Shown: positions 5,567-62,585, counted from the stretch's first letter. The stretch: 64,000 bases of DNA from Patellaria atrata CBS 101060 (GCA_010093705.1 MU006092.1:1320350-1384349); one strand, 5' to 3'. Numbers and translations: made by a program. Notes: a model not told the origin generated them from the letters alone.

Positions 5567-7332
5567 ATGCAGGACTCGAACGACACTCCGGTCGTTCGAG
5601 CCCGCTCAACTCTTGAAGTTGCTGTCGTTCAAGAGTCGCGTCCGCGGCCGAAAAAAACCATGGCGCCTATCGCGAGCGAACTTCTTGGCGACTACCTCTC
5701 CAGCACCTGGGCCCTATTCGCGCATCCGCCAATCGATTTGTACATCTATTGCAGACGTTCAATCACTCGGGCCGTAGAGTATCTTAGGAATAGCGGAGAT
5801 GAGCAGGTAGACATTGAGGCGATGGTGCGGGCTGGCCCACCACAAGGGACCATTGGCGACGGATATCATAAGGACTACCGATGGAGTTCCTACCCCTGGT
5901 TTGTGGCCGCAACCCTTACTATGGCCGTTGTTTTCCCGCTTGTTTGCGCGTACGAATCTTTTGAATGGTACCAACAACGGTGGCATCGGAGAGGGATGCA
6001 GCAGAAGAGGCTTAAGTGGTGGCAATGGCCATTACTCATGGCGGGATTGATCATTGCACCGCTCGGCTTGATGATTTGGTCTTTTGACCATTATGTTCTC
6101 GAGCCTTTACTCGAATTCAGAAGACCAAATATGGAAAAGATTGCTGAGAGGCAGAAGCCGAAACCTCTGCCTAAGATGAGGCCGCGGGCCTTGACACCAC
6201 CACTTGTTCGGCCAGCTTGGAGTGTCAAGAGAATGCAGCATCAGAAAACCATCAATCAGGATGAGTGTCTACTTTTGAACAAGTTGCCTGCAGAGCTTCG
6301 GATCATGATTTGGACATATGTTGTTGGTGGACAGACGCTGCACTTGTTCGAGCAGCCATATCGGATGGCTCACGTTGTCTGCAAAGACAAAGTTCCCCAT
6401 AGGAAGATGTTTAATCATCCCTGGTGCCGTCAGGATATTGGAATGGATTGGTTCCGTCACTCCATGTCTACGCCAGATCCGAAGAATAATCGGAACGTCC
6501 TGGCTCTGCTTAAGGCATGTCGACAAACGTAAGTTTTACACCTTTTGATACTCCTTATCCTCAAAAAAANNNNNNNNNNNNNNNNNNNNNNNNNNNNNNN
6601 NNNNNNNNNNNNNNNNNNNNNNNNNNNNNNNNNNNNNNNNNNNNNNNNNNNNNNNNNNNNNNNNNNNNNGGGGTGGCAAAAATAGCAAAATTGCCTCATC
6701 TTCCCCGCATCTACCGTCTTATCGAGAATTCTCCCCCCGCGTATGCCACGTTTACACAGAATTCCCGCTAATCTTTCTACAGCTATCACGAAGCTCTTCC
6801 CATCCTCTACAAGACCAACACCTTCGACTTCCGCCGCACCAGCACCCTTCCAATATTCGCCAACACCTTACTCCCACAACGTCTCACCTCCATCCGATCT
6901 CTCTACCTGGAATTTTACTTCGACGACGACCCCTTCAACAGCTCTGAACCCGGTTCCCTCGCCACCAACCCGCCCTGGGTCCAAATCACCAAACTCAAAG
7001 CGGACTGGGCCGCCACCCGCTCCATCCTCTCGCGGATGTCCGGCCTCCGTAACCTCCAAATCAAGCTCAGCGGTGTTTTCCGCCGCAAAGAGAGCACAGC
7101 GAAGTGTCTGCTGAGCTTGTGCGAGGTAAAGGTGCAGGGAAAGTTTGAAGTCACTGTGACATGGCCGCGCAGCGAGGAAGAGGCCGAGTTAGAGAAGAAC
7201 GGAGTCTTGACGTTCAAATGCAAGAGGCTTTTCGAAGAGACGTGGGATGCGAATGTCCTCACTTATCTGTATTTTCCGGGCGCACCAAGGGGCTGGGATA
7301 GTTGGGATATCAAACAAAGGGAAAGGTTCTAA
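5567..7332 (+). CDS. Fungal F-box-like (DUF7730-type) protein with two N-terminal hydrophobic segments; 2 exons (5567-6528, 6783-7332)
   Basis: LLNKLPAELRIMIWTYVVGG..LH F-box-like motif. Splicing 6529 GTAAGT..GCTAAT..CAG 6782 gives LLKACRQTYHEALPILYKTNTFDF, typical of this fungal family, and stays open to TAA 7330-7332. The intron spans a 100-N gap. Confidence 0.75.
6570..6669. other. Assembly gap (100 N)
   Basis: Run of N. Confidence 1.
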
Positions 7333-17710: not shown

Positions 17711-20060
17711 ATGGCGCCGGAAGTGCCCCCTAAACCATATCCTATAATCCCAAAAAAGTCGACCGTACAGATCCAGCGTTCAATATCTGAAGTCCAACGG
17801 CAAACTGTTCCAGAAAGTCTACGCATCCAGTTTCCAGTGTCAAGGCAGCAACAAGAGAGCGAAAGCCCACCCAAACGAGAAAGAAGTAACGCGGCTTCTC
17901 CACAAGTTGTAAATGTCTGTCCTGATGAGGGTGTCTCGAGCCCCCCCTTGCCGAGGAACCTATTATCAAATTTATCGGCTTTACGAACGAATCAAGGTAA
18001 TACACATGAAGGTCGCCCCGCCAGAAATGGCGTACAAATACCTCGCCCCTCGTTTCATCCATCTGGAATAAGTAGCAGCGGTTACTCAACCGTTCGGTCA
18101 TCCGGCACATCCCCTTCATTTGTGATCGAAGAAGCCTCAGAAGCAACGATCCAACACGTCAGAGTCTCAAAACCCAGAGTTACATATAACTTCTCTCGCC
18201 CCTTCCGGATAGCGTTGAACCGCGGGAGCACAAAATCTACCTCAAGTAATGCAAATCAAACAGGGATTACGCATATATCTACCCCACACGTTAAGCCCAA
18301 AAATGAACCCGAATCTGAGACTTGCGAAATATCCAAATGGCGATGGGTGTTTGCATGTCTAAATATGTTTTCTGGGGCTCTCTTGTATGGTAAGCATATC
18401 ATGCCTGCAACTTACCTATCTCCTAAATACTAACGGATCTTGTAGGCATTGATACAACGATTGCTGTGAACATCCAAGGAATCATCTATCAGGACTTAGG
18501 CAGTCTACAGAACCTTCCATGGATAGGTATTGGTTTTTTCCTTGGCTCAGCAGCTGTGGTTCTTCCACTCCAAAAATTTGTAACCTTGTATAACCTCAAA
18601 TGGATGCTTTTGTCCTCATTTGTTGTTTTTGTGGTCGGAAACACCCTTTGCGGAGCCGCACCAGTAATGGCTGAGTTTATTGTAGGACGTATCATAGCTG
18701 GGATCGGTGGCGTAGGAGTTATTATTTTGTATGATACCTCATCTAACCTAATATTTGTGTGTCTAACAACTAACTGCTATTAGTAACTTTGCTTATACGT
18801 CTATATTCACAGCTCCGAATCATCGGCAGTTCTATCATGCGGGAATATTTCTGTTCTGGAATATTGGTATGATTGTAGGTCCTGTCATTGGTGGTTCTTT
18901 CAGCGATAGCAGCGTATCCTGGCGATGGTCTTTCTATATCATCATAATTTTTACTGGCGCAAGTAGGTCATCGAAATCAAAGCTTACACCTATTGTCCGT
19001 TCACTCATTTACTTCAACAGTCAACTTTCCAATCTCATCCTTGCTCATGCCTCATTTCCAACCACCATTGGAGTCCTCAACGGGAAAAGAACTTGCCACA
19101 ATTGACTGGCTCGGAACTTTCCTGAACACTACTGTCTTTACCCTTTTCGCTATTGTTGTAACCTTTCAAGGCGCGATATGGAGTTGGAAGTCCCCAGCCG
19201 CCATCGTGATCTGGTATATCTTTGGCCTTTCACTGATCGCCCACATCCTCCAACAAATATATAGCATCTACACCTCCCCTACCCACCGAATCTTCCCCGT
19301 CGAGCTACTTCGTAGCCGCACCATGATCCTCCTTTTCATCGTCACCAGCTGTGCTACTGCGGCCCTAGTCATCCCACTCTACTATGTTCCCCTATTATTC
19401 CAATTCACCCGTGGCGAAGATACCCTTCAAACACCTATCTATCTCCTCCCTCTCCTAATCCCCTTCGTCTTCACCCTCTTAGTCACCAGCGCAATTCTTC
19501 CCCTCGCCAAACTTTATCCACCCTTCTACCTCGCCGGCGGAATCCTTATCTCGATCGGCGGCACCATTTTCCTCCGCATCACACCCAGCACATCCCGTGG
19601 GTCCATATACGGCGCCGAGAGCGTCATGGCGATCGGCGCCGGTCTAACTTTTCAAAGCGCATATACCATCGCTGCTGCTAAAACACGCTCAGACAAAGCC
19701 GCTACAGCAGTCAGTTTAATCAGTATCGCGCAGGTCGGATCTGCGACCATCGCTCTCACGGTAGCGGGCACGATCTTTCAGAATCTGGGATACCATAACC
19801 TGGCGTGTGCGTTTGTGGGAAGGAGGTTTGAGGTCGAGGAGCTCAGGGGCATGTTAGCGGGGAGAATGAGTCCGGTTCTGAGGGGCGCTAGTGAGGAGAT
19901 TATGGTGTTGGCGCTTGAGGCGATTGTTGATACGATAGCGAAGGGTTTTGCGTTGGTTGTTGCGGCGGGAGGAGTTATGGTTCTGGCGGCGGCGGGGATG
20001 AGGTGGGAGAGGTTGAAGATGAAGGGGATCTGGGGAGATAGAGGTCTGGAAGAAGAATAG
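17711..20060 (+). CDS. MFS drug:H+ antiporter (DHA2/14-TMS type) with long N-terminal disordered extension; 4 exons
   Basis: LYG|IDTTIAVNIQ, LPWIGIGFFLG, LCGAAP..FIVGRIIAGIGG, IVGPVIGGSFSDSSVSWRWSFY, IDWLG, IPLYYVPLLFQFTRG. Introns 18390-18445, 18729-18783, 18963-19020. Confidence 0.85.
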
Positions 20061-20339
20061 GTAGGGATAGAGGTTACTGCTGTAGTTATAGGGAATACTT
20101 TGTATATAGTTGAGGAACTCTAGTTTTGTTTGTTTTGTCTCCTCCATTAATGTCTAGGCCAGTCAACGGATTTAGGAGAAGAGTTATGCAGTAACATAGT
20201 AGGGAGAGTGTAAGGAAGGATAACCACATCATGCTGGTAGATTATCATTTTCTGTAGGCCAGTCATCGCGTGCAATAACCGTGAGGTATCGATCATCATC
20301 TTTTCCCTCCCATTATCCTAAACCAGTGGTCGCATCCAT

Positions 20340-21332
20340 TGTCTTCCCGCGCTTCGCCATGATAGTGATGCATCCCTGAAGAACCTACTATGCCCATTCT
20401 CATCAACCTCGATCTTCCTAGGTCCCACGTCCACAATCGAGATAGACTCAAATGCACCTACCATCCAGCTTGTTGTTATCCTGCTGCTCGTCGGCGGACT
20501 AGGCCTTACTCGCTTCTTTGTTCATCCGCTCCCAGCGAACCCCATCGCGACGTGTGAGCGCTGGGAACTCCACAGCCAGAGGAGACGTAAATTTCGTAAA
20601 ATTTTGTGCGGCTAGTGAAGTTCGAGGGAGTGTTAGACATCTCTTGTACTCCGTTATAGTATGACCAATAGAGATCGGTGAGGGGATTGGTACCATCAAG
20701 CACTTCAGTTACTGCGACTTAGAAATATTTGCTGAGGAACCGCGCAGAGTCGTAGTAACTGCTGTAGGTGAATCGCTTGTTAATGCATAGATTGAGTAAA
20801 AACATGCAGTGTTCGTAGCTGAGGTTATGGTTCAGGTCAAACTGGGCTGCTTGGAGATCTGCGCGGATTTTAGGGTTCTGGATATATTCCGTCACTCCGA
20901 ATCTTCAGGGTGTTTCTAAAGGAATTCAGCATTTATTCAGTCAATCTCGTCCTTCTCCTTTCCAAATAACGTACATCATGTTGACTCTCTGGATATAAGC
21001 GAATGCGCGAAGCTCGTCTCTGTTTTGGGTTTATTAGAATTTTGATATGAAATTCCTTTGGTTAAACTTACGCGCAAAGAGCAGGTTTAATATCGTCAAG
21101 GATTTCAAACCCATCATGTACACCCTTTCGTCGTTCAGCGGACAAAGCTTCCTCTTTATAGATGCGTTGTGTCTTCCGTAGTTTCTCCCGTAGTTTCTCT
21201 TGTTGTTCTTCGCTATTGTTCTTCGGATCCCTAGCTATCGCGGCGTGCTTTTTCTCCCTCCGCTCCCTATTGTATTGTTTTCTCCCCTCAGCTGTCCGGA
21301 GAATGCCACTTCCGAGTACTGTTTACCGTCAT
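20340..21332 (-). pseudogene. Orphan-family pseudogene copy A (paralogue of 26117-27335)
   Basis: MTVNS../ILRTAEGRKQYN...DIKPALCA | ADELRAFAYIQRVNM (exon 21019-20975) | ..FGVTEYIQNPKIRADLQAAQFDLNHNLSYEHCMFLLNLCINKRF...EMSNTPSNFTSRTKFYEIY../EFPALTRRDGVRWERM../FESISIVDVGPRKIEVDENGHS. Several frameshifts and stops; the 3' end is approximate. Confidence 0.75.
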
Positions 21333-22633
21333 CACGAGAGAAGAATTCCTTGCAACACTTGGTAAGCAAAATGATATATAACGATTTGAGTAGTACAATA
21401 GATAATCTGCTATAATGGTGGAAGGTAAGAGATCTATGAATAGCAATAGAATGGCATATGGGGAAAAGGTCTGGTGAGATAGCTGCTCGAAGGGATAACC
21501 ATCTCAAATTCGCGATCACAATAAGCGGATTTGGCGAACGATATTAAACTGCAAAGATGCTAAAGCGAAAGGGGATTGAAGTGCTAGTCATGGTATAGGA
21601 ACTTACAGGGCCGTTGATTGATTGCAAAAGTTTGAAGAATTGGAGGAGAGAATGGTCTATTAATAAGATCAGCAGGTGCGGTTAGGGCGGCCATTCAAAG
21701 ACAAACGGCTGCTTGAAGCGAAATGACTCAAAAATATGTGACTCTCTAACACGCGATTATGTGGGGAAATATAATGAGCCTACGATATTCTGTCTTCGAG
21801 TATTCTAACAACTTGTAATCGCAGTGAATACAGATTTGAGAACAAAGAAGCTGTGAAAAGTAATTGAACTCTTCCATTGAGTAAAAATTTGATGGTAACT
21901 CTGGTCGCGTCATCGACGAGTAAAAAGTATTGACAAGAGTAATAACTTAAAAAATTGCAGGATGCTCTATATCGTCTTCCTTCAGACCCATATGACTTTC
22001 TACTTAGTATTAGGGCCTTCCGATCCTCAAGAGCAATAGAGGAAGCTAACTGTTCTCTCTCTAAAGCAGAACTGTGGGAGATAATATAAGCATACAGAAA
22101 GAAGCAAATACAATACCTCTTATCAGATCTTTCAGGATTCCTCGTCTACTATATGTGCTCTCTCAAAGTGCTCTGACACTTTAACCAGTCAAGTGAAAAT
22201 GGAAGAACGTACCACATTTGTACGAGGGACCTGATAATACAGCAAACAACAGTGGTGGAACTTTGCAATTAGCATCTTCCTAGGAATAAGAAGGAGGTGT
22301 AAATGCTATCCGGAATGGGGGAGGTGATGCAAAAGAGGGAGTAGAATATGGTGTTACTCAGTTGCTGTATGGCTGGCGCTGAATACCCCCTACACCGATG
22401 TACGTATGGAAACAGACCTTACACTGATGCAAGCCGTACTATGCCTGGGTCAAACATCATTTATGGCTGTCGATGCTTCTGATTCGATAGTTCCTCCGTA
22501 AGTGTATTTCCAGCAAAGCGAGCAGTGAGATGGGAAGAGGGGTATTCCTATCCCAATCAAAATTTCGTATCTTTATAAAGCTCCTCGTAATTTGGGGGTC
22601 TGTAGTGACCGGGGTGAGGGCGCGCGCCAAGTA

Positions 22634-22674
22634 GAAGTCTTGGACACTCCGTGCACAGAGACACTCCGTGCACG
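22634..22674 (+). repeat. Left TIR (41 bp) with internal 14-bp direct repeat
   Basis: gacactccgtgcac occurs twice (22643-22656, 22660-22673). Exact reverse complement of 24680-24720. Confidence 0.97.
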
Positions 22675-22724
22675 CCACCCCACAAACCTATACTGTTACT
22701 TCAAAATTCAATATCTCCATCAAT

Positions 22725-24567
22725 ATGGTAGCTATTGACCTCGCTCTTGATGATCTGAATAGCCAATCAGTACCTAATATCAGCCATACTGCTAAAAAGT
22801 TTGGTGTTGACCGTACTACGTTGTCGCGTCGATGGAGAGGTATAACCCGTTCTATAGATACGGCGTACAAGAGGAGAGAATTCCTCAACGAATCCCAGTC
22901 CAAATTCCTTATTAATTATATTAACAGAGTCTCTGCGCAAGGCTTAGCGCCTACTCCATTAATGGTACGGACCTGGGCAGTAGAGATTGCTAAGAAAGAG
23001 CCGTCAGCTAAATGGCCAAGCCGCTGGATTAAGCGAAATTCAAAATGTTTGAAATCTAGATATCTCTCAGGGCTAGATAAATCCAGGAAAAATTCAGAAT
23101 CTGCCTTCTACTACGCGCTATACTTTAAGCTATTAGCTCGTAAAATAGAGCAGTATAGGGTTAAAATCCCTAATATATGGAATATAGACGAGAAGGGCTT
23201 TCTAATAGGTATACTGCAAAAGTAACGTCGTTACTTCTCTAAAGTATACTACGAAATAGGGGCTCTGAAGCACGTACTTCAAGATGGTAGTAGATCGTGG
23301 ATAACGTGTCTTGCTACTATCTATGCTGACGGTAGGCACCTGGATCTAATGCTGATTTACGAGGCGGTTAGTGGAGATATTCAGGATACGTGGATATAAG
23401 ACTATAACGAAAATATCCATAAATGCTCTTTTGCTTCCTCTCTAACTGGCTGGACGAATAACGAGCTCGGATATCAGTGGCTAACACGAGTCTTTAAGCC
23501 GTATACTAGACCCACAAGCGATAGAGAGTGGAGAGTTTTAATACTTGATGGGCACGGATCTCACGTCATAATGAAATTCATTGATTTTGCGTTAAGTCAT
23601 AGAATCCTGCTGGCTGTTTTTCCTCCGCATTCAACTCACCGTTTACAACCTCTTGACGTCTCATNNNNNNNNNNNNNNNNNNNNNNNNNNNNNNNNNNNN
23701 NNNNNNNNNNNNNNNNNNNNNNNNNNNNNNNNNNNNNNNNNNNNNNNNNNNNNNNNNNNNNNNNNNNNNNNNNNNNNNNNNNNNNNNNNNNNNNNNNNNN
23801 NNNNNNNNNNNNNNNNNNNNNNNNNNNNNNNNNNNNNNNNNNNNNNNNNNNNNNNNNNNNNNNNNNNNNNNNNNNNNNNNNNNNNNNNNNNNNNNNNNNN
23901 NNNNNNNNNNNNNNNNNNNNNNNNNNNNNNNNNNNNNNNNNNNNNNNNNNNNNNNNNNNNNNNNNNNNNNNNNNNNNNNNNNNNNNNNNNNNNNNNNNNN
24001 NNNNNNNNNNNNNNNNNNNNNNNNNNNNNNNNNNNNNNNNNNNNNNNNNNNNNNNNNNNNNNNNNNNNNNNNNNNNNNNNNNNNNNNNNNNNNNNNNNNN
24101 NNNNNNNNNNNNNNNNNNNNNNNNNNNNNNNNNNNNNNNNNNNNNNNNNNNNNNNNNNNNNNNNNNNNNNNNNNNNNNNNNNNNNNNNNNNNNNNNNNNN
24201 NNNNNNNNNNNNNNNNNNNNNNNNNNNNNNNNNNNNNNNNNNNNNNNNNNNNNNNNNNNNNNNNNNNNNNNNNNNNNNNNNNNNNNNNNNNNNNNNNNNN
24301 NNNNNNNNNNNNNNNNNNNNNNNNNNNNNNNNNNAGGTATCAGCTCGAGAGCGTGCTACTGAGGCTCGTCAGGCTCAACAACAGCTTATTGGCGATATCA
24401 GACAGTCACGGCTACGCAATAAGGTATCAAAAGGTGTATTTACTACCACTCAACAGAAGGAAGTTGTTGTTCTATCTCCATTAAAAGTTCAGGATAGTGG
24501 TGAAGGTAGTTCTCGTCCAAAACGCACGCGCAAAGCACCAGCACGATTTTTAGATTTTGAAACATAG
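22725..24567 (+). pseudogene. Fot1/pogo transposase (HTH psq + CENP-B HTH + DDE_1) inactivated by in-frame stops
   Basis: AKKFGVDRTTLSRR, WNIDEKGF, GWTNNELG, LILDGHGSH, FPPHSTHRLQPLDV, C-terminal RPKRTRKAPARF. In-frame TAA at 23223-25 and 23397-99. Confidence 0.93.
23665..24334. other. Assembly gap (670 N) inside transposon
   Basis: Run of N. Confidence 1.
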
Positions 24568-24679
24568 ATAGATCTATTTCTTACTATCTAAATAACTATT
24601 CTACCAAATTTGAATATAAACGGACTTATGGTTGTTGAGATATTCGTAATTCAAAAGCCATACTGTTGGTGGTGATCAC

Positions 24680-24720
24680 CGTGCACGGAGTGTCTCTGTG
24701 CACGGAGTGTCCAAGACTTC
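24680..24720 (-). repeat. Right TIR (41 bp)
   Basis: cgtgcacggagtgtctctgtgcacggagtgtccaagacttc followed by TA. Confidence 0.97.
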
Positions 24721-26116
24721 TAATATTAGAAACTGAAAACTAGAATATGCTAATATCAACCTCACTGAAGGACTTCTCGCCGTTGATACAACAATATATC
24801 AACCATAGTAATAGTAGTTTGTCTCACTGAGAGTACGATATGATCAATACTATATAAAATATTACCCAGTAATTCAAAAATTATTTCACTGGTATCTCAT
24901 CGCCAAGTTAATAGCATTATCTCGGTATGTCCCACTCAAATCACATCTTCTTACGGTCATATAACCCTCATTGTATCTGAATACGCCGTATATCCTTTTC
25001 AATTACACTTGAAAATAATGAACTCTTAAGAACTATATTCTCTTTGTTGCTCCCCTCTGCGTACCAAACCATCCAGTGCTCTTATTTCGTCTGTCCCTCA
25101 ACCTAAATTGCAGAGCTGTATCTTCTTATCAGCCTTGATAGGCATTCCCTTTGATGATTCAACGCATATTGTTTTGTACAATATTGGTTCTTAAGTTGTG
25201 CATCTTGTTTACTCCTGTCTTATTCAGTATCGGCCATGTGAAAATCATGTCCGGAATACATTCTATTTACTAATAAGATCAGGTTGAATTTGAAAGTCCT
25301 CAGACCTTTTCGCGTGGAGTCTTACTTTACGACCCAAAGACTTTTGACCTGTCGGTATCTTCACGCATTCGGAAGGGTGTTCCAAGTGGGCAATGACATC
25401 CACTTCACTAACTCGGCGGGACGACGTTACTTGCGGCGAAGAACCAGCTCGCCCAAGTTTTTGTACTAGAAATTTAAACCGGAAAATTACGCCTTCACCC
25501 GAGCGGGTTTAGTATATAAAACTTGGTAAGTCCCCCCAACGTACCTAAGGTCACAGTTCGATTCTAACGTCTAATAGGTTCCATATTATAGATATAAATA
25601 GAAAATCAATCATATCATTTCCAGCTTGCTCTACTTGCGAAAGTGGAGAGTGTAGCGCAAATGTGTCCGGTGGTTCCGATAACAGCCAATATTGTTTTCT
25701 TTTTACTTCATTGTTTTTGTTTTAATTCTTTTTTATTTAACTTAACTATAAGTATTAGGAATACATAATGAATGCCTTTAATTATCGTATTATATTTTAT
25801 CTTTCAAAGCTACCAATGAGTTAATTCCTAATACCTGATGAGAAATTGAGTGTCCTTCATCGTCCCAACTCGAATTCTCCAAAAACTGGTCGCTGGTGGA
25901 TGATGTAATAGTAGTTCACGCCCGATTTTGTTCCATTTGTAGTTGGTCACGGTGCACAACACGCCGCACTTAAACCAAACTTGTCGCGTCTCTCTCTCCC
26001 TCTCGCTCACACTCGCACTCACATCTACCTCGTACAAACACTCCGTCACTTGGGTCCTTTTCCCTGGATACATCCGACACTATCTTAATTATACCACCCT
26101 TGAGCAACTACTAATA

Positions 26117-27335
26117 ATGACTAAGAATAGCAGAGAATAAAAGCTGTTGGCAACATCTGAGGAGAGGAAGGAGTACAACGCAATGACAAGATAGAAGAGA
26201 ACTGTTAAGCGCGAAGAGAACGCAGAGCAGAATACTGCAAGAGCAGCTCAGCAGCAGTAAGCACAGCAGGAAGCACAGCAGGAAGCACAGCAACGTCAAC
26301 GAGAATTGCACTGGGCCGGTCAACGCGAAAATGTACACAACGTTAGATTCGATTCGACGTAGAACCCGAGCTTTCTGCGTAAGTTTAGTGTGTATAGAAT
26401 TGCTTTTCCGTCTAATATGTGCCCTTTAGGGAAAAGATTCGCGCATTCGCTCACTTGCACAGAATAGGGATAAAGTAAGTTCAACACAGGGACAGGATCA
26501 GCATATGGGATACTCAATGCTTCTAGGACACTACCGGGATACGGGGTGAAAGAGTACATCAAAGATCAGGATGTACACAACGAGCTTCAGGAGAACGGCT
26601 ACAAGCTTAGCCATAACTTATCCTTTGACGCCATCACCTTCCCCTTCAACCTTGGGATCAGCAAGAGGTTCAATTTCGACATCCGCTTTCCCTTCCCAAA
26701 CATGATCTGCGCCTATGCTCTGCTTTGCCTTAATTCCCTTAGCAATGACGAGACAATTTTCCTAACGAAAATTTAATCGCCCTTTTTAGATGGCGCCAAT
26801 GAGATGCGGACCAATCCCGAGACCTTCGACGCTCGTATTAAATTTTGTAACATCTACTTTGATTCCGAAGACGACTTTCCACGCTTTTCCCATGCTGATC
26901 TCAAACACTGGGATCGGTTCCAGCGAAAGAGCCGCATGGCCATGGCGTACGTGGAGAAGCTGGAACAAAAAAAGCCCGTCGACGACATATGCGAGATTAT
27001 CAAGTTTCTGGACTTCGAGTCCTCCGAGGAAAAGATGGAGGGCATGATGGACGAGTTTGAGTTCGTTGGAATTGAAGATGTGGGAGAGGGAACGGTGGAG
27101 GTGAATGATAAAGGTCATAGCGCCTCATATTTAGCAATGGTGCAGACAGATGTTGTTCAAGCAGCGTAACGTCCAGGAGGAGAAAGTTCTCCGTGGTGTC
27201 CGCGACACCTTCGGGACCCCGGATGAGCATGAGGAAGCGCCCCGAGATAGCGAGACGGCGCCACGGGATAGAGGAAAACAGATGCAGGAGATTAAGGAGG
27301 ATGATGGCGGTCGCGGATGCGATGATGTGAGATAA
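26117..27335 (+). pseudogene. Orphan-family pseudogene copy B (paralogue of 20340-21332)
   Basis: MTKNSRE*KLLATSEERKEYN...(QQEA)n.../DVEPELSA | AEKIRAFAHLHRIGIK (exon 26430-26474) | TLPGYGVKEYIKDQDVHNELQENGYKLSHNLSFDAITFPFNLGISKRF.../EMRTNPETFDARIKFCNIYFDSEDDFPRFSHADLKHWDRF...FEFVGIEDVGEGTVEVNDKGHS. Introns start at 26379 and 26475. Multiple stops and frameshifts. Confidence 0.75.
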
Positions 27336-27807
27336 ACTGTATCTGCAGGTGCATGGAGTATGTCGCTCGATTTTTCTATCTATCTACTAAAGGAATTTCT
27401 ATATATACTGAAGAGCTACCGAGAACACGTATCCAAATCTCAATATATCTAATAGTCGTTGAGATATCTGTTGAGATAGTGGAGTCAGTTGAGGACGAAA
27501 CAAATAATTGTTGAAGAGAGACTTTTTCGTACTCCATGCTACTCCGTGGCTGACATCTGACAGATAGTTGACAGATCCACCAAAGGACCCATACTTCAAC
27601 ATTACCCTTGGTCGCTAGTAGCACTAATACTCTAACAGCTCCATCATCTAACAGATGATCTCATGGACGTCGACTGTAGAGACAAGTGGTGAGCTGCAAC
27701 GATGGGATTGTCAAAGGCGGCGGAGTTTTCATTTTCTTTCACGATATACCCCATGTATTGAAAGCTGTCTGGATGGCGATTTGATTTTGTTCTCCTTCAC
27801 ATACACA

Positions 27808-27990
27808 CCTCTTCTCCTAGATCTCCTCCCTTCATACATGTATAGACGAAAACAGCATTTGACAATACAGTACGTGGACTTGGTACTCCCTCTTTTTCTA
27901 GATATCCCTCCTTCATACATGGATAAGTAAATAAAAACAGCAGTGTACGTGAACTGAATATCACACATCTCTTCCTATATCTCTCTTTCA
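27808..27990. repeat. Degenerate ~80-bp tandem repeat (about 2.3 copies)
   Basis: cctcttctcctagatctcctcccttcatacatg..aaaacagca..gtacgtggact recurs as cctctttttctagatatccctccttcatacatg..aaaacagca..gtacgtgaact, with a partial third copy. Confidence 0.7.
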
Positions 27991-28979
27991 CAATGCACTG
28001 TTTATCCAAAGCCTGGCTACAAATATTCATGACTGTAAATAATCTAACCTCAATTCAATACACCTTTACCTTGATCTACAATTCTATCCTCCTACAGTAC
28101 ATACTTTCTAAATGTTCTAGCCTTGCTCTCCACGTTCCTGGGCTTTATCTCAAACTAGCTGAGACCAATACAGCCAGTTGACTTCGCTGCTAGGTAGAAT
28201 CCTACTCTACCACCCAAAACACATATTTGCAACACCTTGGAAGGAAGGCCATTACTCTCCGCGATTACAGTACTACGTACAATCCTCTTTTCTGACCTCA
28301 CTTACCGCACAAGCCAACCACCATACTTAACAGACCCACAACCGCCCACTTTCCGACCTAAACGCACGAAATTTTTTGGTAATCTACGAAACGGTCAGTA
28401 TAGGAAGAATTTGACATAATAATCCTCAATCTTCACGAAAAATCTTTGCGATTAATATGCCATACGAAGTTTCGGCCAACTTCGCTTTCCCTTTACGAGA
28501 TGAGATGGGAAGGAGGGGAGATGCGAACGGAGTCACGTCACCGCGGCAACCTACTCTCTCCTAACCTCACAGATACCCTCATACCCTTCATGACACCACG
28601 GAAGTAATCCAATCGTCTGCTAACGCACAATAAATTGTCTATTACCATAAAAGTGCAGTCTTCAGTCAAGAAAAGTGTCATTGATGATAAGTCATATGAA
28701 GTAAGATAGCTACATCCACAACACACGCACGTCGAAGAGAACAAAGGTGATATCTCTATAGCTAAATTTCGCAATACGGGTAATAAACTTCCACTGCTCG
28801 GTCCCTCGCTCTGCGCCCCCTCATGAAGTTGGCCTTGCCCTCAAATACCACATGATGCTCGCAAGACCGGTCCTCCGACCCATCACCACAATGAACAAAA
28901 CCGCATGATCATGTCCTCGTTAATTCAGACAACCTCTCTACGCGTATAGAACGCGTAGCACTACACATGCATGAATCCT

Positions 28980-31033
28980 TCAAGACTCAGCATCCACAAA
29001 TTCATCAAGGTCTCCACTCTCAGAGTCTTGTCTCGCCAGTTTCGAGCCATCGGGTCTATTTTCCGCTGGCTTCATTGCTTCCTTGTAATGTTGTGTTGAG
29101 GGTAGCAATGGTTCTTGCATCCTGGCGGGTGGTTGGTTGTCGTGCATTGGTTGCTGTGTGTTGATGAGAGGCGAAGGGCTTTGTACTGCTTGCGGGCCTT
29201 TGCTTCGTGGTGTATCATTTTGACCGAAGTCGATGAGATCCCCGGAACCGCCTTGCTGTTCTGCAGGAGTGTGGTGATGGTTATCCGCAACGCTTCCTCT
29301 TGGTGGGATCTCAAAGTCATTCTTAGGTTTTTGGCCAGGTAGGATGGCGGCGATGTTGAGGATTTGCTTCGTCGTCTCATCGGGTGTTTTCCCGTCGCTA
29401 ACCGCCGTTAGTTGAAGGTGAGAAACAAATAACTGTCTCTGCTCACATTCTTGCGTTGATAATCCAGTCTAGGTCTTCTTCACCTTCCTCCTCTCCGCCT
29501 GGACCTCCCCTGACTCTCCGGAAGAATCTCGGATGCCACTCCACGCCGTCTTCGACTCGTTTCGCAGCCTCCGCTCTTTGCTCGTCTTCGATGCGGGATT
29601 TCTCTGTCGTTGCTGTGTTTTGATCTTTCTGTTTTAGAGCAGTAGTGACCTTCCTCCATAGCTTCTGCGATTCGCGGTCTTCCTGCTCCTCCAGCGGTCG
29701 AACACTCGGAGGTGTTTCACGAGCGTGAGTAGCATCAAATAAAAGCTCCTTCTTTCCGGTCTACAGTTGTGAAATCTAGATTAGCATAGATAGTTACGAT
29801 AGCATGAAGTTATTGGAGAAATTTACCGCAAGGTCCTTAATGAACATCTCCCCATTCCAAAGACCTGAAAGCTCGAATAGATTTTTGTCGTTGCGATCCT
29901 TAATGTAACCTCCTATGGCGTTGTAAGTGCCACCAAAGTAACCCTTCGTCTTGAACTCGAGATCCGCAACCATTCCACTTTCAGGACATCTAACGAAACT
30001 ATGATCGCCAAGTTCGTACTTCATTTTCCCAAACATGATACCTCGGGAGTAGATATTCGGTTGTGTAATGAAACTAACCACACCCTATCAGTATACTTCC
30101 ACCGTCGTTTTGATGGTGCACATACAATCTTTCATTTCTATCGAGAAACCTCATCACAGCTATGCCCTCCATCATACTGGCGGCTGAGTTACCTAAAAAC
30201 TTGCTTCGAGGTTTCAAGGTTCCATCAATTCTGATATTATGCTCGGGAGCCATGAAGAAGTAACTTGATTTTGGTGGATGATGTGACGTCTGTTCGGATA
30301 TGTAGTAACCACGGGAATTATCAGGGTATTCCCAGTACCCTGTGAATATCTCCCCAAGAATTGGATTCAGGGGCTTTTTGACCCCTCTGTCATATAATTA
30401 GCCCCTATACCGCCTCCATTCACACCAAAGGGTTGCAACGCGGTAGAGCATACATACGGTGGCTTAATGTGCCAGCCACTGAGATAGAACTTTACAACAG
30501 CGACAAATCTCTGGACAGGATCATCTATCTTTGACATGGGGAGCAGAATCTCGGGATGTGCCATGAAACTATAGTTCTATGTCAACGTCGATTCGAGCGC
30601 GGAAGCGCCGGAAAAGCGTATAACGCACTTTGTTATCCTCTCCAACATTGATCGAGGTTCTAGGATAAAGGTAGGTAAGGTTATTCGACTTAGGTCGGCG
30701 CCTGGTCGTAGCTGGGATATGATATGCATGAGCACTGTTTTACGTTGACATTCAGTTAGCATTGCTCTACTGCATTGATCATTCCTTGTCACCTCCTTAA
30801 TCACCACAGGACAGAACGTACTGTTACCCTGCTCCGAGTCCACGACAGTCTCATCGTCAGTAACGTTCCCTTCCCGAGTCTCATCAACGGAGGAACGGTT
30901 GCCTGTGGAACGAGAGAAAGACGAGGTTAGCTACAATTCTATCTCTATGAATCGCGTTGTGAGAAGGGGTAGGAGAAATAGAAGTTGCCATACTGTGAAC
31001 AGAGTGCCGCCTATGACTGTGACCCAGAACCAT
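28980..31033 (-). CDS. Oxysterol-binding protein-related lipid transfer protein, Osh6/Osh7 (ORP5/8)-type, multi-exon
   Basis: MVLGHSHRRHS start, then GADLSRITLPTFILEPRSMLERI, KKPLNPILGE, signature SEQTSHHPP, RSKFLGNS. Last exon ends ...DLDEFVDAES* (TGA 28982-28980). About 7 short GT-AG introns. Confidence 0.93.
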
Positions 31034-62485: not shown

Positions 62486-62585
62486 NNNNNNNNNNNNNNN
62501 NNNNNNNNNNNNNNNNNNNNNNNNNNNNNNNNNNNNNNNNNNNNNNNNNNNNNNNNNNNNNNNNNNNNNNNNNNNNNNNNNNNNN
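62486..62585. other. Assembly gap (100 N)
   Basis: Run of N, followed by poly-A and short atatcttttg repeats. Confidence 1.

Follow-up and report, generated by a model that had tools for sequence, protein, structure and literature searches.

Two broken, divergently oriented paralogues in Patellaria atrata CBS 101060, probably the remains of a lineage-restricted orphan gene family

Two interrupted genes that point away from each other lie on either side of a DNA transposon in a 64,000-nucleotide stretch of the genome of the filamentous ascomycete Patellaria atrata CBS 101060 (GCA_010093705.1 MU006092.1:1320350-1384349; this whole stretch is called the window, and positions are counted from its first base). 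The locus raises the question of whether the two genes are relatives of each other, what kind of gene they descend from, and whether any part of them is still in use. An earlier reading of the bare sequence, here called the original prediction, had proposed a pair of paralogous orphan genes and had compared their layout with that of fungal conflict loci or of a domesticated mobile or viral gene. The analysis described here favors, with a probability of roughly 80 %, two unprocessed pseudogenes left over from an old divergent pair, paralogues that belonged to a lineage-restricted orphan family. On this reading, the locus has no present function.

The two genes, copy A and copy B, are composed of the following parts:

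20318..21332, minus strand: copy A, unprocessed pseudogene, with the ATG at 21332-21330 and an in-frame stop past the last homologous block at 20320-20318 (from three-frame layout, tblastn against B, and alignment)
21072..21332, minus strand: A exon 1, charged and predicted helical, with an extra base near 21308 that shifts the frame after codon 8
21020..21071, minus strand: A intron 1, 52 nucleotides, gtaagt...acag
20975..21019, minus strand: A exon 2, 45 nucleotides, entered in phase 2
20916..20974, minus strand: A intron 2, 59 nucleotides, gtacgt...ttag
20770..20915, minus strand: A exon 3 (FGVTEYI...LNHNLS...INKRF), with an extra base near 20902 that shifts the frame
20656..20769, minus strand: A spacer, unaligned, with an in-frame TAA at 20721-20719; probably former intron 3
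20387..20655, minus strand: A exon 4 up to a GHS motif (from three-frame layout and alignment)
26117..27169, plus strand: copy B, unprocessed pseudogene, with the ATG at 26117 and the stop at 27167-27169 (from three-frame layout, tblastn, and alignment)
26117..26378, plus strand: B exon 1, with the stops TAA 26138-26140, TAG 26192-26194, and TAA 26258-26260
26379..26429, plus strand: B intron 1, 51 nucleotides, gtaagt...ttag
26430..26474, plus strand: B exon 2, 45 nucleotides, in the same phase as in A
26475..26526, plus strand: B intron 2, 52 nucleotides, gtaagt...ctag
26527..26671, plus strand: B exon 3 (YGVKEYI...LSHNLS...ISKRF), open
26672..26789, plus strand: B spacer, unaligned, with an in-frame TAA at 26774-26776, a ctaac branch site, and a tttttag acceptor; probably intron 3
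26790..27169, plus strand: B exon 4, open, 126 codons, acidic (net charge -13 from residue 151 on)

The peptides quoted in the original prediction, the two start codons at 21332 (minus strand) and 26117 (plus strand), the gtaagt donors that end exon 1 in both copies, and the exons 2 of 45 nucleotides (A 21019-20975, B 26430-26474) are all present in the window.

Relatedness of the copies is evident from searches in both directions. When fragments of B were compared with the whole window by tblastn, exon 3 of A was found with an expectation value (E) of 1.3e-8 (41 % of 46 residues) and exon 4 of A with E=0.002, and nothing else of note was recovered; in the reciprocal search with A, copy B was found at E=2.7e-9 and 2.4e-4. 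For alignment over the full length, read-through proteins were built with frames and break points picked by eye, using the other copy as a guide and placing X at stops and at most breaks, a procedure that raises the alignment score a little. Their Smith-Waterman alignment reached a score of 332 (z=51), compared with a mean of 37.4, a standard deviation of 5.7, and a maximum of 74 in 1000 shuffles, and is thus far above chance. Identical residues occupy 80 of the 236 aligned positions (34 %). In the same shuffle test, exons 2-4 on their own gave z=45 and the charged exon 1 on its own z=6.9; in a two-row alignment of exon 3, 19 of the 48 columns are invariant. As judged from these comparisons, A and B are true paralogues, and this part of the original prediction, which had named the shuffle test as a possible refutation, stands. 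A third copy was not found in the window: when a two-sequence profile was run by hmmsearch against six-frame fragments, the pair's own pieces were recovered at E<=0.0042 and the next match had E=4.6.

The gene structure is shared as well. Introns 1 and 2 interrupt the two copies at equal codon positions and in equal phases, all four have GT..AG ends, and their lengths are similar (52 and 51 nucleotides for intron 1, 59 and 52 nucleotides for intron 2, in A and B, respectively). In A and B alike, exon 3 is separated from exon 4 by about 42-43 codons that contain an in-frame stop and cannot be aligned. This spacer is probably a former third intron whose full splice signals are now gone in both copies: in A there is no AG acceptor upstream of the NGVQEM block, and in B there is no GT donor in the phase demanded by the tttttag acceptor. 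Homology can be traced only as far as a GHS motif that both copies have (A 20395-20387, B 27113-27121). The sequences that follow it were not accepted as homologous, with z=3.9 and a poor alignment for the best of nine frame pairs.

Both copies are pseudogenes, and they are unprocessed, as introns are kept while the reading frames are broken relative to the paralogue. Copy A carries at least four frameshifts and one stop; in exon 4 these are an extra base near 20577, a TAG at 20501-20499, and a shift near 20459, together with a gap of 20 residues relative to B. Copy B has at least four lesions, four of which lie in exon 1, namely the three stops and a 5-nucleotide tandem duplication of gattc (26351-26355) that shifts the frame near the end of the exon. 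The original prediction was thus right in calling both genes broken and understated the extent, with at least five lesions in A and at least four in B. These lesions are not assembly errors, because independent contigs built from two public runs of one sample (X1 and X2, which may be the assembly's own source) cover 20000-22660 and 24694-27355 (X2 to 27280) with 0 differences to the window and at single-copy depth; the word depth of the copies equals that of the single-copy flanks (471/489 in X1 and 325/333 in X2). No other contig of at least 80 % identity was placed on either copy in these runs, and the frameshift sites lie outside homopolymer runs. A third run, X3, from another organism, yielded only three short, low-depth contigs on or beside both copies that are identical to the window.

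At the DNA level, the two copies have drifted apart. A blastn comparison of A and B gave no significant similarity, the best match being 17 nucleotides in exon 2 at E=0.16, and none between their flanks; an in-place inverted duplication that included the flanks was rejected on the latter ground. Identity by codon position is 129, 139, and 90 of 233 for positions 1, 2, and 3 (0.55/0.60/0.39), a pattern that the protein-guided alignment tilts slightly, not enough to create it; for exons 2-4 the values are 0.61/0.63/0.37. Because third positions are near saturation and yet 34 % of the residues are kept, the copies appear to have gone through a long period of divergence with purifying selection at the protein level and to have decayed afterwards. 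This agrees with the original prediction, which had read diverged DNA with conserved motifs and intron positions in the same way. Repeat-induced point mutation (RIP) makes transitions only and does not make insertions or deletions. Since transitions and transversions between A and B number 159 and 182, respectively, RIP did not drive their divergence.

One competing explanation is that one copy is still used, with B giving rise to a shortened protein from exons 2-4 (an example being the frame 26777-27169 with its ATG at 26801) or to a regulatory transcript. Exons 2, 3, and 4 of B are indeed undisturbed by stops or frameshifts, and the ends of introns 1 and 2 are still canonical. Such a use is nevertheless very unlikely in view of the four disabling lesions in exon 1 and of a third intron that lacks an in-phase GT donor; an alternative upstream ATG at 26331 meets a stop after splicing.

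The nature of the ancestral protein was approached through its predicted features and through family searches. For exon 1 of A (21071-21322), AlphaFold2 predicted helices at residues 11-31 and 38-83 with a mean predicted local distance difference test score (pLDDT) of 79.8, so that of the charged, coiled-coil-like N-terminus proposed originally, a charged and predicted helical exon 1 is retained; exon 4 of B alone gave an unusable model (mean pLDDT 39.9). The net charge is +8 for exon 1 of A and -13 for the C-terminal part of B. The read-through proteins comprise 261 and 275 residues with three and two cysteines, respectively. With a polar N-terminus and a maximum 19-residue hydropathy of 0.62, they are predicted to have no signal peptide or membrane segment. 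A secreted small cysteine-rich effector was rejected on the polar N-terminus and the low number of cysteines, the lack of a signal peptide being judged from polarity and hydropathy and not from a dedicated predictor.

In Pfam-A, no piece of the pair matched a family at the gathering score, and the read-through of exons 3-4 of B (214 residues) likewise matched none. The best match, DUF6547 with 17 bits (cut-off 27, E=0.0079), concerned exon 1 of A only and not B; membership was rejected, and the match is attributed to chance similarity of a charged helix. The basic region of bZIP proteins has the signature N-x7-R/K and is followed by a heptad leucine zipper. This assignment was rejected too, with no Pfam bZIP match and with H (A) and T (B), as read by eye, at residue 8 after the conserved N. 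A HMMER search with exon 4 of B (130 residues) against 1.84 billion representative proteins gave 0 hits at E<=0.001. Word-indexed searches returned 51 candidates among longer proteins for exon 4 of B, none of which scored, 1251 candidates for a 350-residue read-through of B, none at E<=0.1, and 84 candidates for residues 105-274 of the A read-through, none of which was confirmed. For pattern scans, the two-row A/B alignment replaced a five-row fragment alignment that was too diverged; metagenome contigs gave 574 and 56 pattern matches and viral contigs 6 and 47, with 0 confirmed in either collection. There was no usable match in the ESM Atlas, and among PDB sequences only interferon-gamma appeared (E=0.18), which is taken as chance. 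The family is therefore as unrecognised as the original prediction held, and it appears to be a lineage-restricted orphan without a relative in the libraries searched. These libraries consist mostly of prokaryotes and metagenomes, so the blank results are weak evidence of absence in fungi.

Two repetitive elements lie close to the pair:

22632..24722, plus strand: pogo/Fot1-like DNA transposon, 2091 bp, with a DDE_1 domain, inverted ends, and RIP mutations; unrelated to the pair
27326..27500, no strand assigned: start of a high-copy repeat that adjoins the 3' side of B; several contigs have loose ends that start at 27326

The transposon has perfect inverted ends of 43 nucleotides, flanking TA included, with TA on both flanks. 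Its DDE_1 domain was recognized by Pfam with 54.1 bits (cut-off 22, E=1.9e-14), and HTH_Tnp_Tc5 with 22.1 bits fell just below its cut-off of 22.2. Part of the interior is N in the window, and the analysis covers the remaining sequence. The element resembles the pogo/Fot1 group of the Tc1/mariner elements (PMC7325037, PMC2836289) in its DDE_1 domain, Tc5-type helix-turn-helix, terminal inverted repeats, TA flanks, and length of about 2.1 kb; this likeness concerns the central element only. It differs in that the copy in the window is inactivated by RIP-made stops, and it is unrelated to A and B. Depth is 2-5x single-copy, and the flanks of other copies diverge at 22631. All 17 differences listed relative to other copies from the same runs are TpA in the window and CpA or TpG elsewhere. 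The transposon is thus lightly mutated by RIP (CpA>TpA and TpG>TpA), and two RIP-made TAA codons (23223-23225 and 23397-23399) break the transposase frame. Because its ends are perfect and its divergence from other copies is only about 1 %, it arrived long after the divergence of the pair. Without it, the start codons of A and B are about 2.7 kb apart. The description of the genes as flanking the transposon therefore captures an incidental position, namely that of a recent and unrelated insertion.

Within exon 1 of B, positions 26252-26292 consist of three tandem units of 12 nucleotides, CAGCAG[G/T]AAGCA, which encode a Q/E-rich part of the exon.

Two of the three stops of B and the TAG of A can each be derived by a C>T change in CpA, which brings in RIP as a possible cause of death of the pair. 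The TAA at 26258 lies in the first of the 12-nucleotide units, and because the other two units have G at the corresponding base, this stop is a G>T change and not of the RIP type. In the Leptosphaeria maculans genome paper (PMC3105345), RIP is described as spreading occasionally into single-copy genes next to it. The situation is alike in that RIP is active in this genome, as seen in all 17 transposon differences, and unlike in that A and B show no transition excess, that one stop of B is a transversion, and that the other lesions are insertions or deletions. A spread of RIP as killer of the pair is hence unsupported.

The presence of transposable DNA nearby, that is, the pogo element and the high-copy repeat from 27326, together with the orphan character of the sequence, would fit the idea that A and B are relics of a domesticated or degenerate gene that a mobile element or virus carried, and not of a host family. 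Several findings make this quite improbable. Both copies have single-copy depth, without any other contig of at least 80 % identity; neither is surrounded by inverted or direct terminal repeats; and two spliceosomal introns are conserved in position. In the viral collection, 0 of the 6 and 0 of the 47 pattern matches were confirmed, and the pogo element inserted long after the pair had come into being.

The remnant of a conflict system of two genes (allorecognition, spore killer and antidote, or a paired immune-type locus), lost in this strain and intact and polymorphic elsewhere, would be compatible with the head-to-head layout, with the lineage restriction suggested by the blank searches, and with the joint loss of both genes. 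HET-S and NWD2 reportedly have only a short amyloid motif in common and carry HeLo and NACHT/WD domains. This pair of adjacent partner genes from Podospora anserina (PMC3321046, PMC4344463) is similar to A and B in comprising two neighbouring genes of a filamentous ascomycete with sequence in common; it differs in that A and B are homologous over their whole length and have no such domain. In Pfam, none of the pieces showed a HET, HeLo, NACHT, NB-ARC, repeat, or toxin-like domain, and for HET, HeLo, NACHT, and NB-ARC with WD, ANK, or TPR repeats there was no match even at E<=10. Moreover, A and B are full-length paralogues and not two different partners, they lack a predicted signal peptide or membrane segment, and a divergent layout is common among ordinary neighbours. 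A former conflict system is accordingly held to be very improbable, and just as little credence is given to the variant in which the wrecks are the remnant of a lineage-restricted divergent system of homologous partners (for instance killer and antidote, or self and non-self recognition) that would be intact and polymorphic in other strains or sister species and would define a family without database relative. The original suggestion of a conflict locus or of a domesticated mobile or viral gene is not supported, with no such domain, no viral or metagenomic relative, and single-copy depth.

An artefact, in the form of similarity by chance or of sequencing errors within one intact pair, has nothing in its favor beyond the general possibility and is practically excluded by the shuffle maximum of 74 against 332, by independent contigs that agree without a difference at a word depth of about 330-490x, and by frameshift sites that do not lie in homopolymer runs.

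Under the favored explanation of two dead members of an orphan family, the ancestral gene would have had at least four exons, including the exon 2 of 45 nucleotides. Its product was probably a small, soluble, intracellular protein of about 270-300 residues without signal peptide or membrane segment, whose N-terminal arm was basic and helical and whose C-terminal part is acidic in copy B; a nuclear or nucleic-acid-associated role for this small helical protein is a tentative guess. After the duplication, purifying selection would have acted on both copies until synonymous sites and introns had lost all similarity, and both copies would later have lost their function by frameshifts, stops, and loss of splice sites. 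Recently and independently, a pogo/Fot1-like transposon would have inserted at a TA in the spacer of about 2.7 kb, followed by light RIP. Unprocessed (duplicated) pseudogenes of lineage-specific orphan families occur in filamentous fungi. The locus resembles them in its retained introns, its scattered lesions, the lack of a detectable family outside the lineage, and the 0.55/0.60/0.39 pattern of codon positions; it differs in that decay has struck both members of a divergent pair and in that the family is known only from wrecks.

Several points weigh against this explanation. An intact relative was found nowhere, and the gene model, the C-terminus, and intron 3 are reconstructed from two broken copies, whose frames and break points were set by inspection, each copy guiding the other; because the alignment is protein-guided, identity at codon positions 1 and 2 is slightly favored. 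The libraries searched comprise neither a fungal genome collection nor the genome of the organism itself, so that diverged intact paralogues may exist elsewhere, and the open exons 2-4 of B may still yield a shortened product.

For annotation, two pseudogenes are to be recorded at the locus instead of unlinked fragments or nothing at all, which is of small practical value. It also puts on record a protein family that none of the searches made could place, and it provides a clean local example of RIP, with both transposase-breaking stops made by this process. Furthermore, it shows that RIP activity in a genome need not keep diverged paralogues from persisting until ordinary mutation has killed both of them. 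A greater importance would arise only if intact, polymorphic relatives turned up in related fungi.

The surroundings of the pair are gene-rich and encode proteins with ordinary domains, namely an M28 peptidase/TFR protein, MFS transporters, AA9, Zn2Cys6, and an S28 peptidase. The pair lies between an MFS gene (18948-20060) and a gene at 28980-29468. The window is thus a gene-rich stretch with ordinary neighbouring genes and no island of transposable elements. Across the region of the pair, the G+C content, N excluded, is 0.38-0.46, with a composite RIP index of about 0, a value also reached by several other segments of the 64-kb stretch, and a compositional RIP island was rejected on these values. 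Of the island of transposable elements and RIP proposed originally, only the RIP-mutated transposon itself is left. A scan of 19000-29000 with Rfam gave 0 matches. Three runs of N are present:

6570-6669: 100 nucleotides, resembling an assembly gap
62486-62585: 100 nucleotides, resembling an assembly gap
23665-24334: 670 nucleotides, within the transposon

The high-copy repeat downstream of B starts at 27326/27327 with TGTGAG and has no second copy in the window. Its word depth in X1 is 28428 compared with 489 for single-copy sequence, that is, about 58x. Also downstream of B, in unannotated sequence, are two direct repeats of 37 nucleotides each (27808-27844 and 27889-27925), which are 84 % alike and 81 nucleotides apart.

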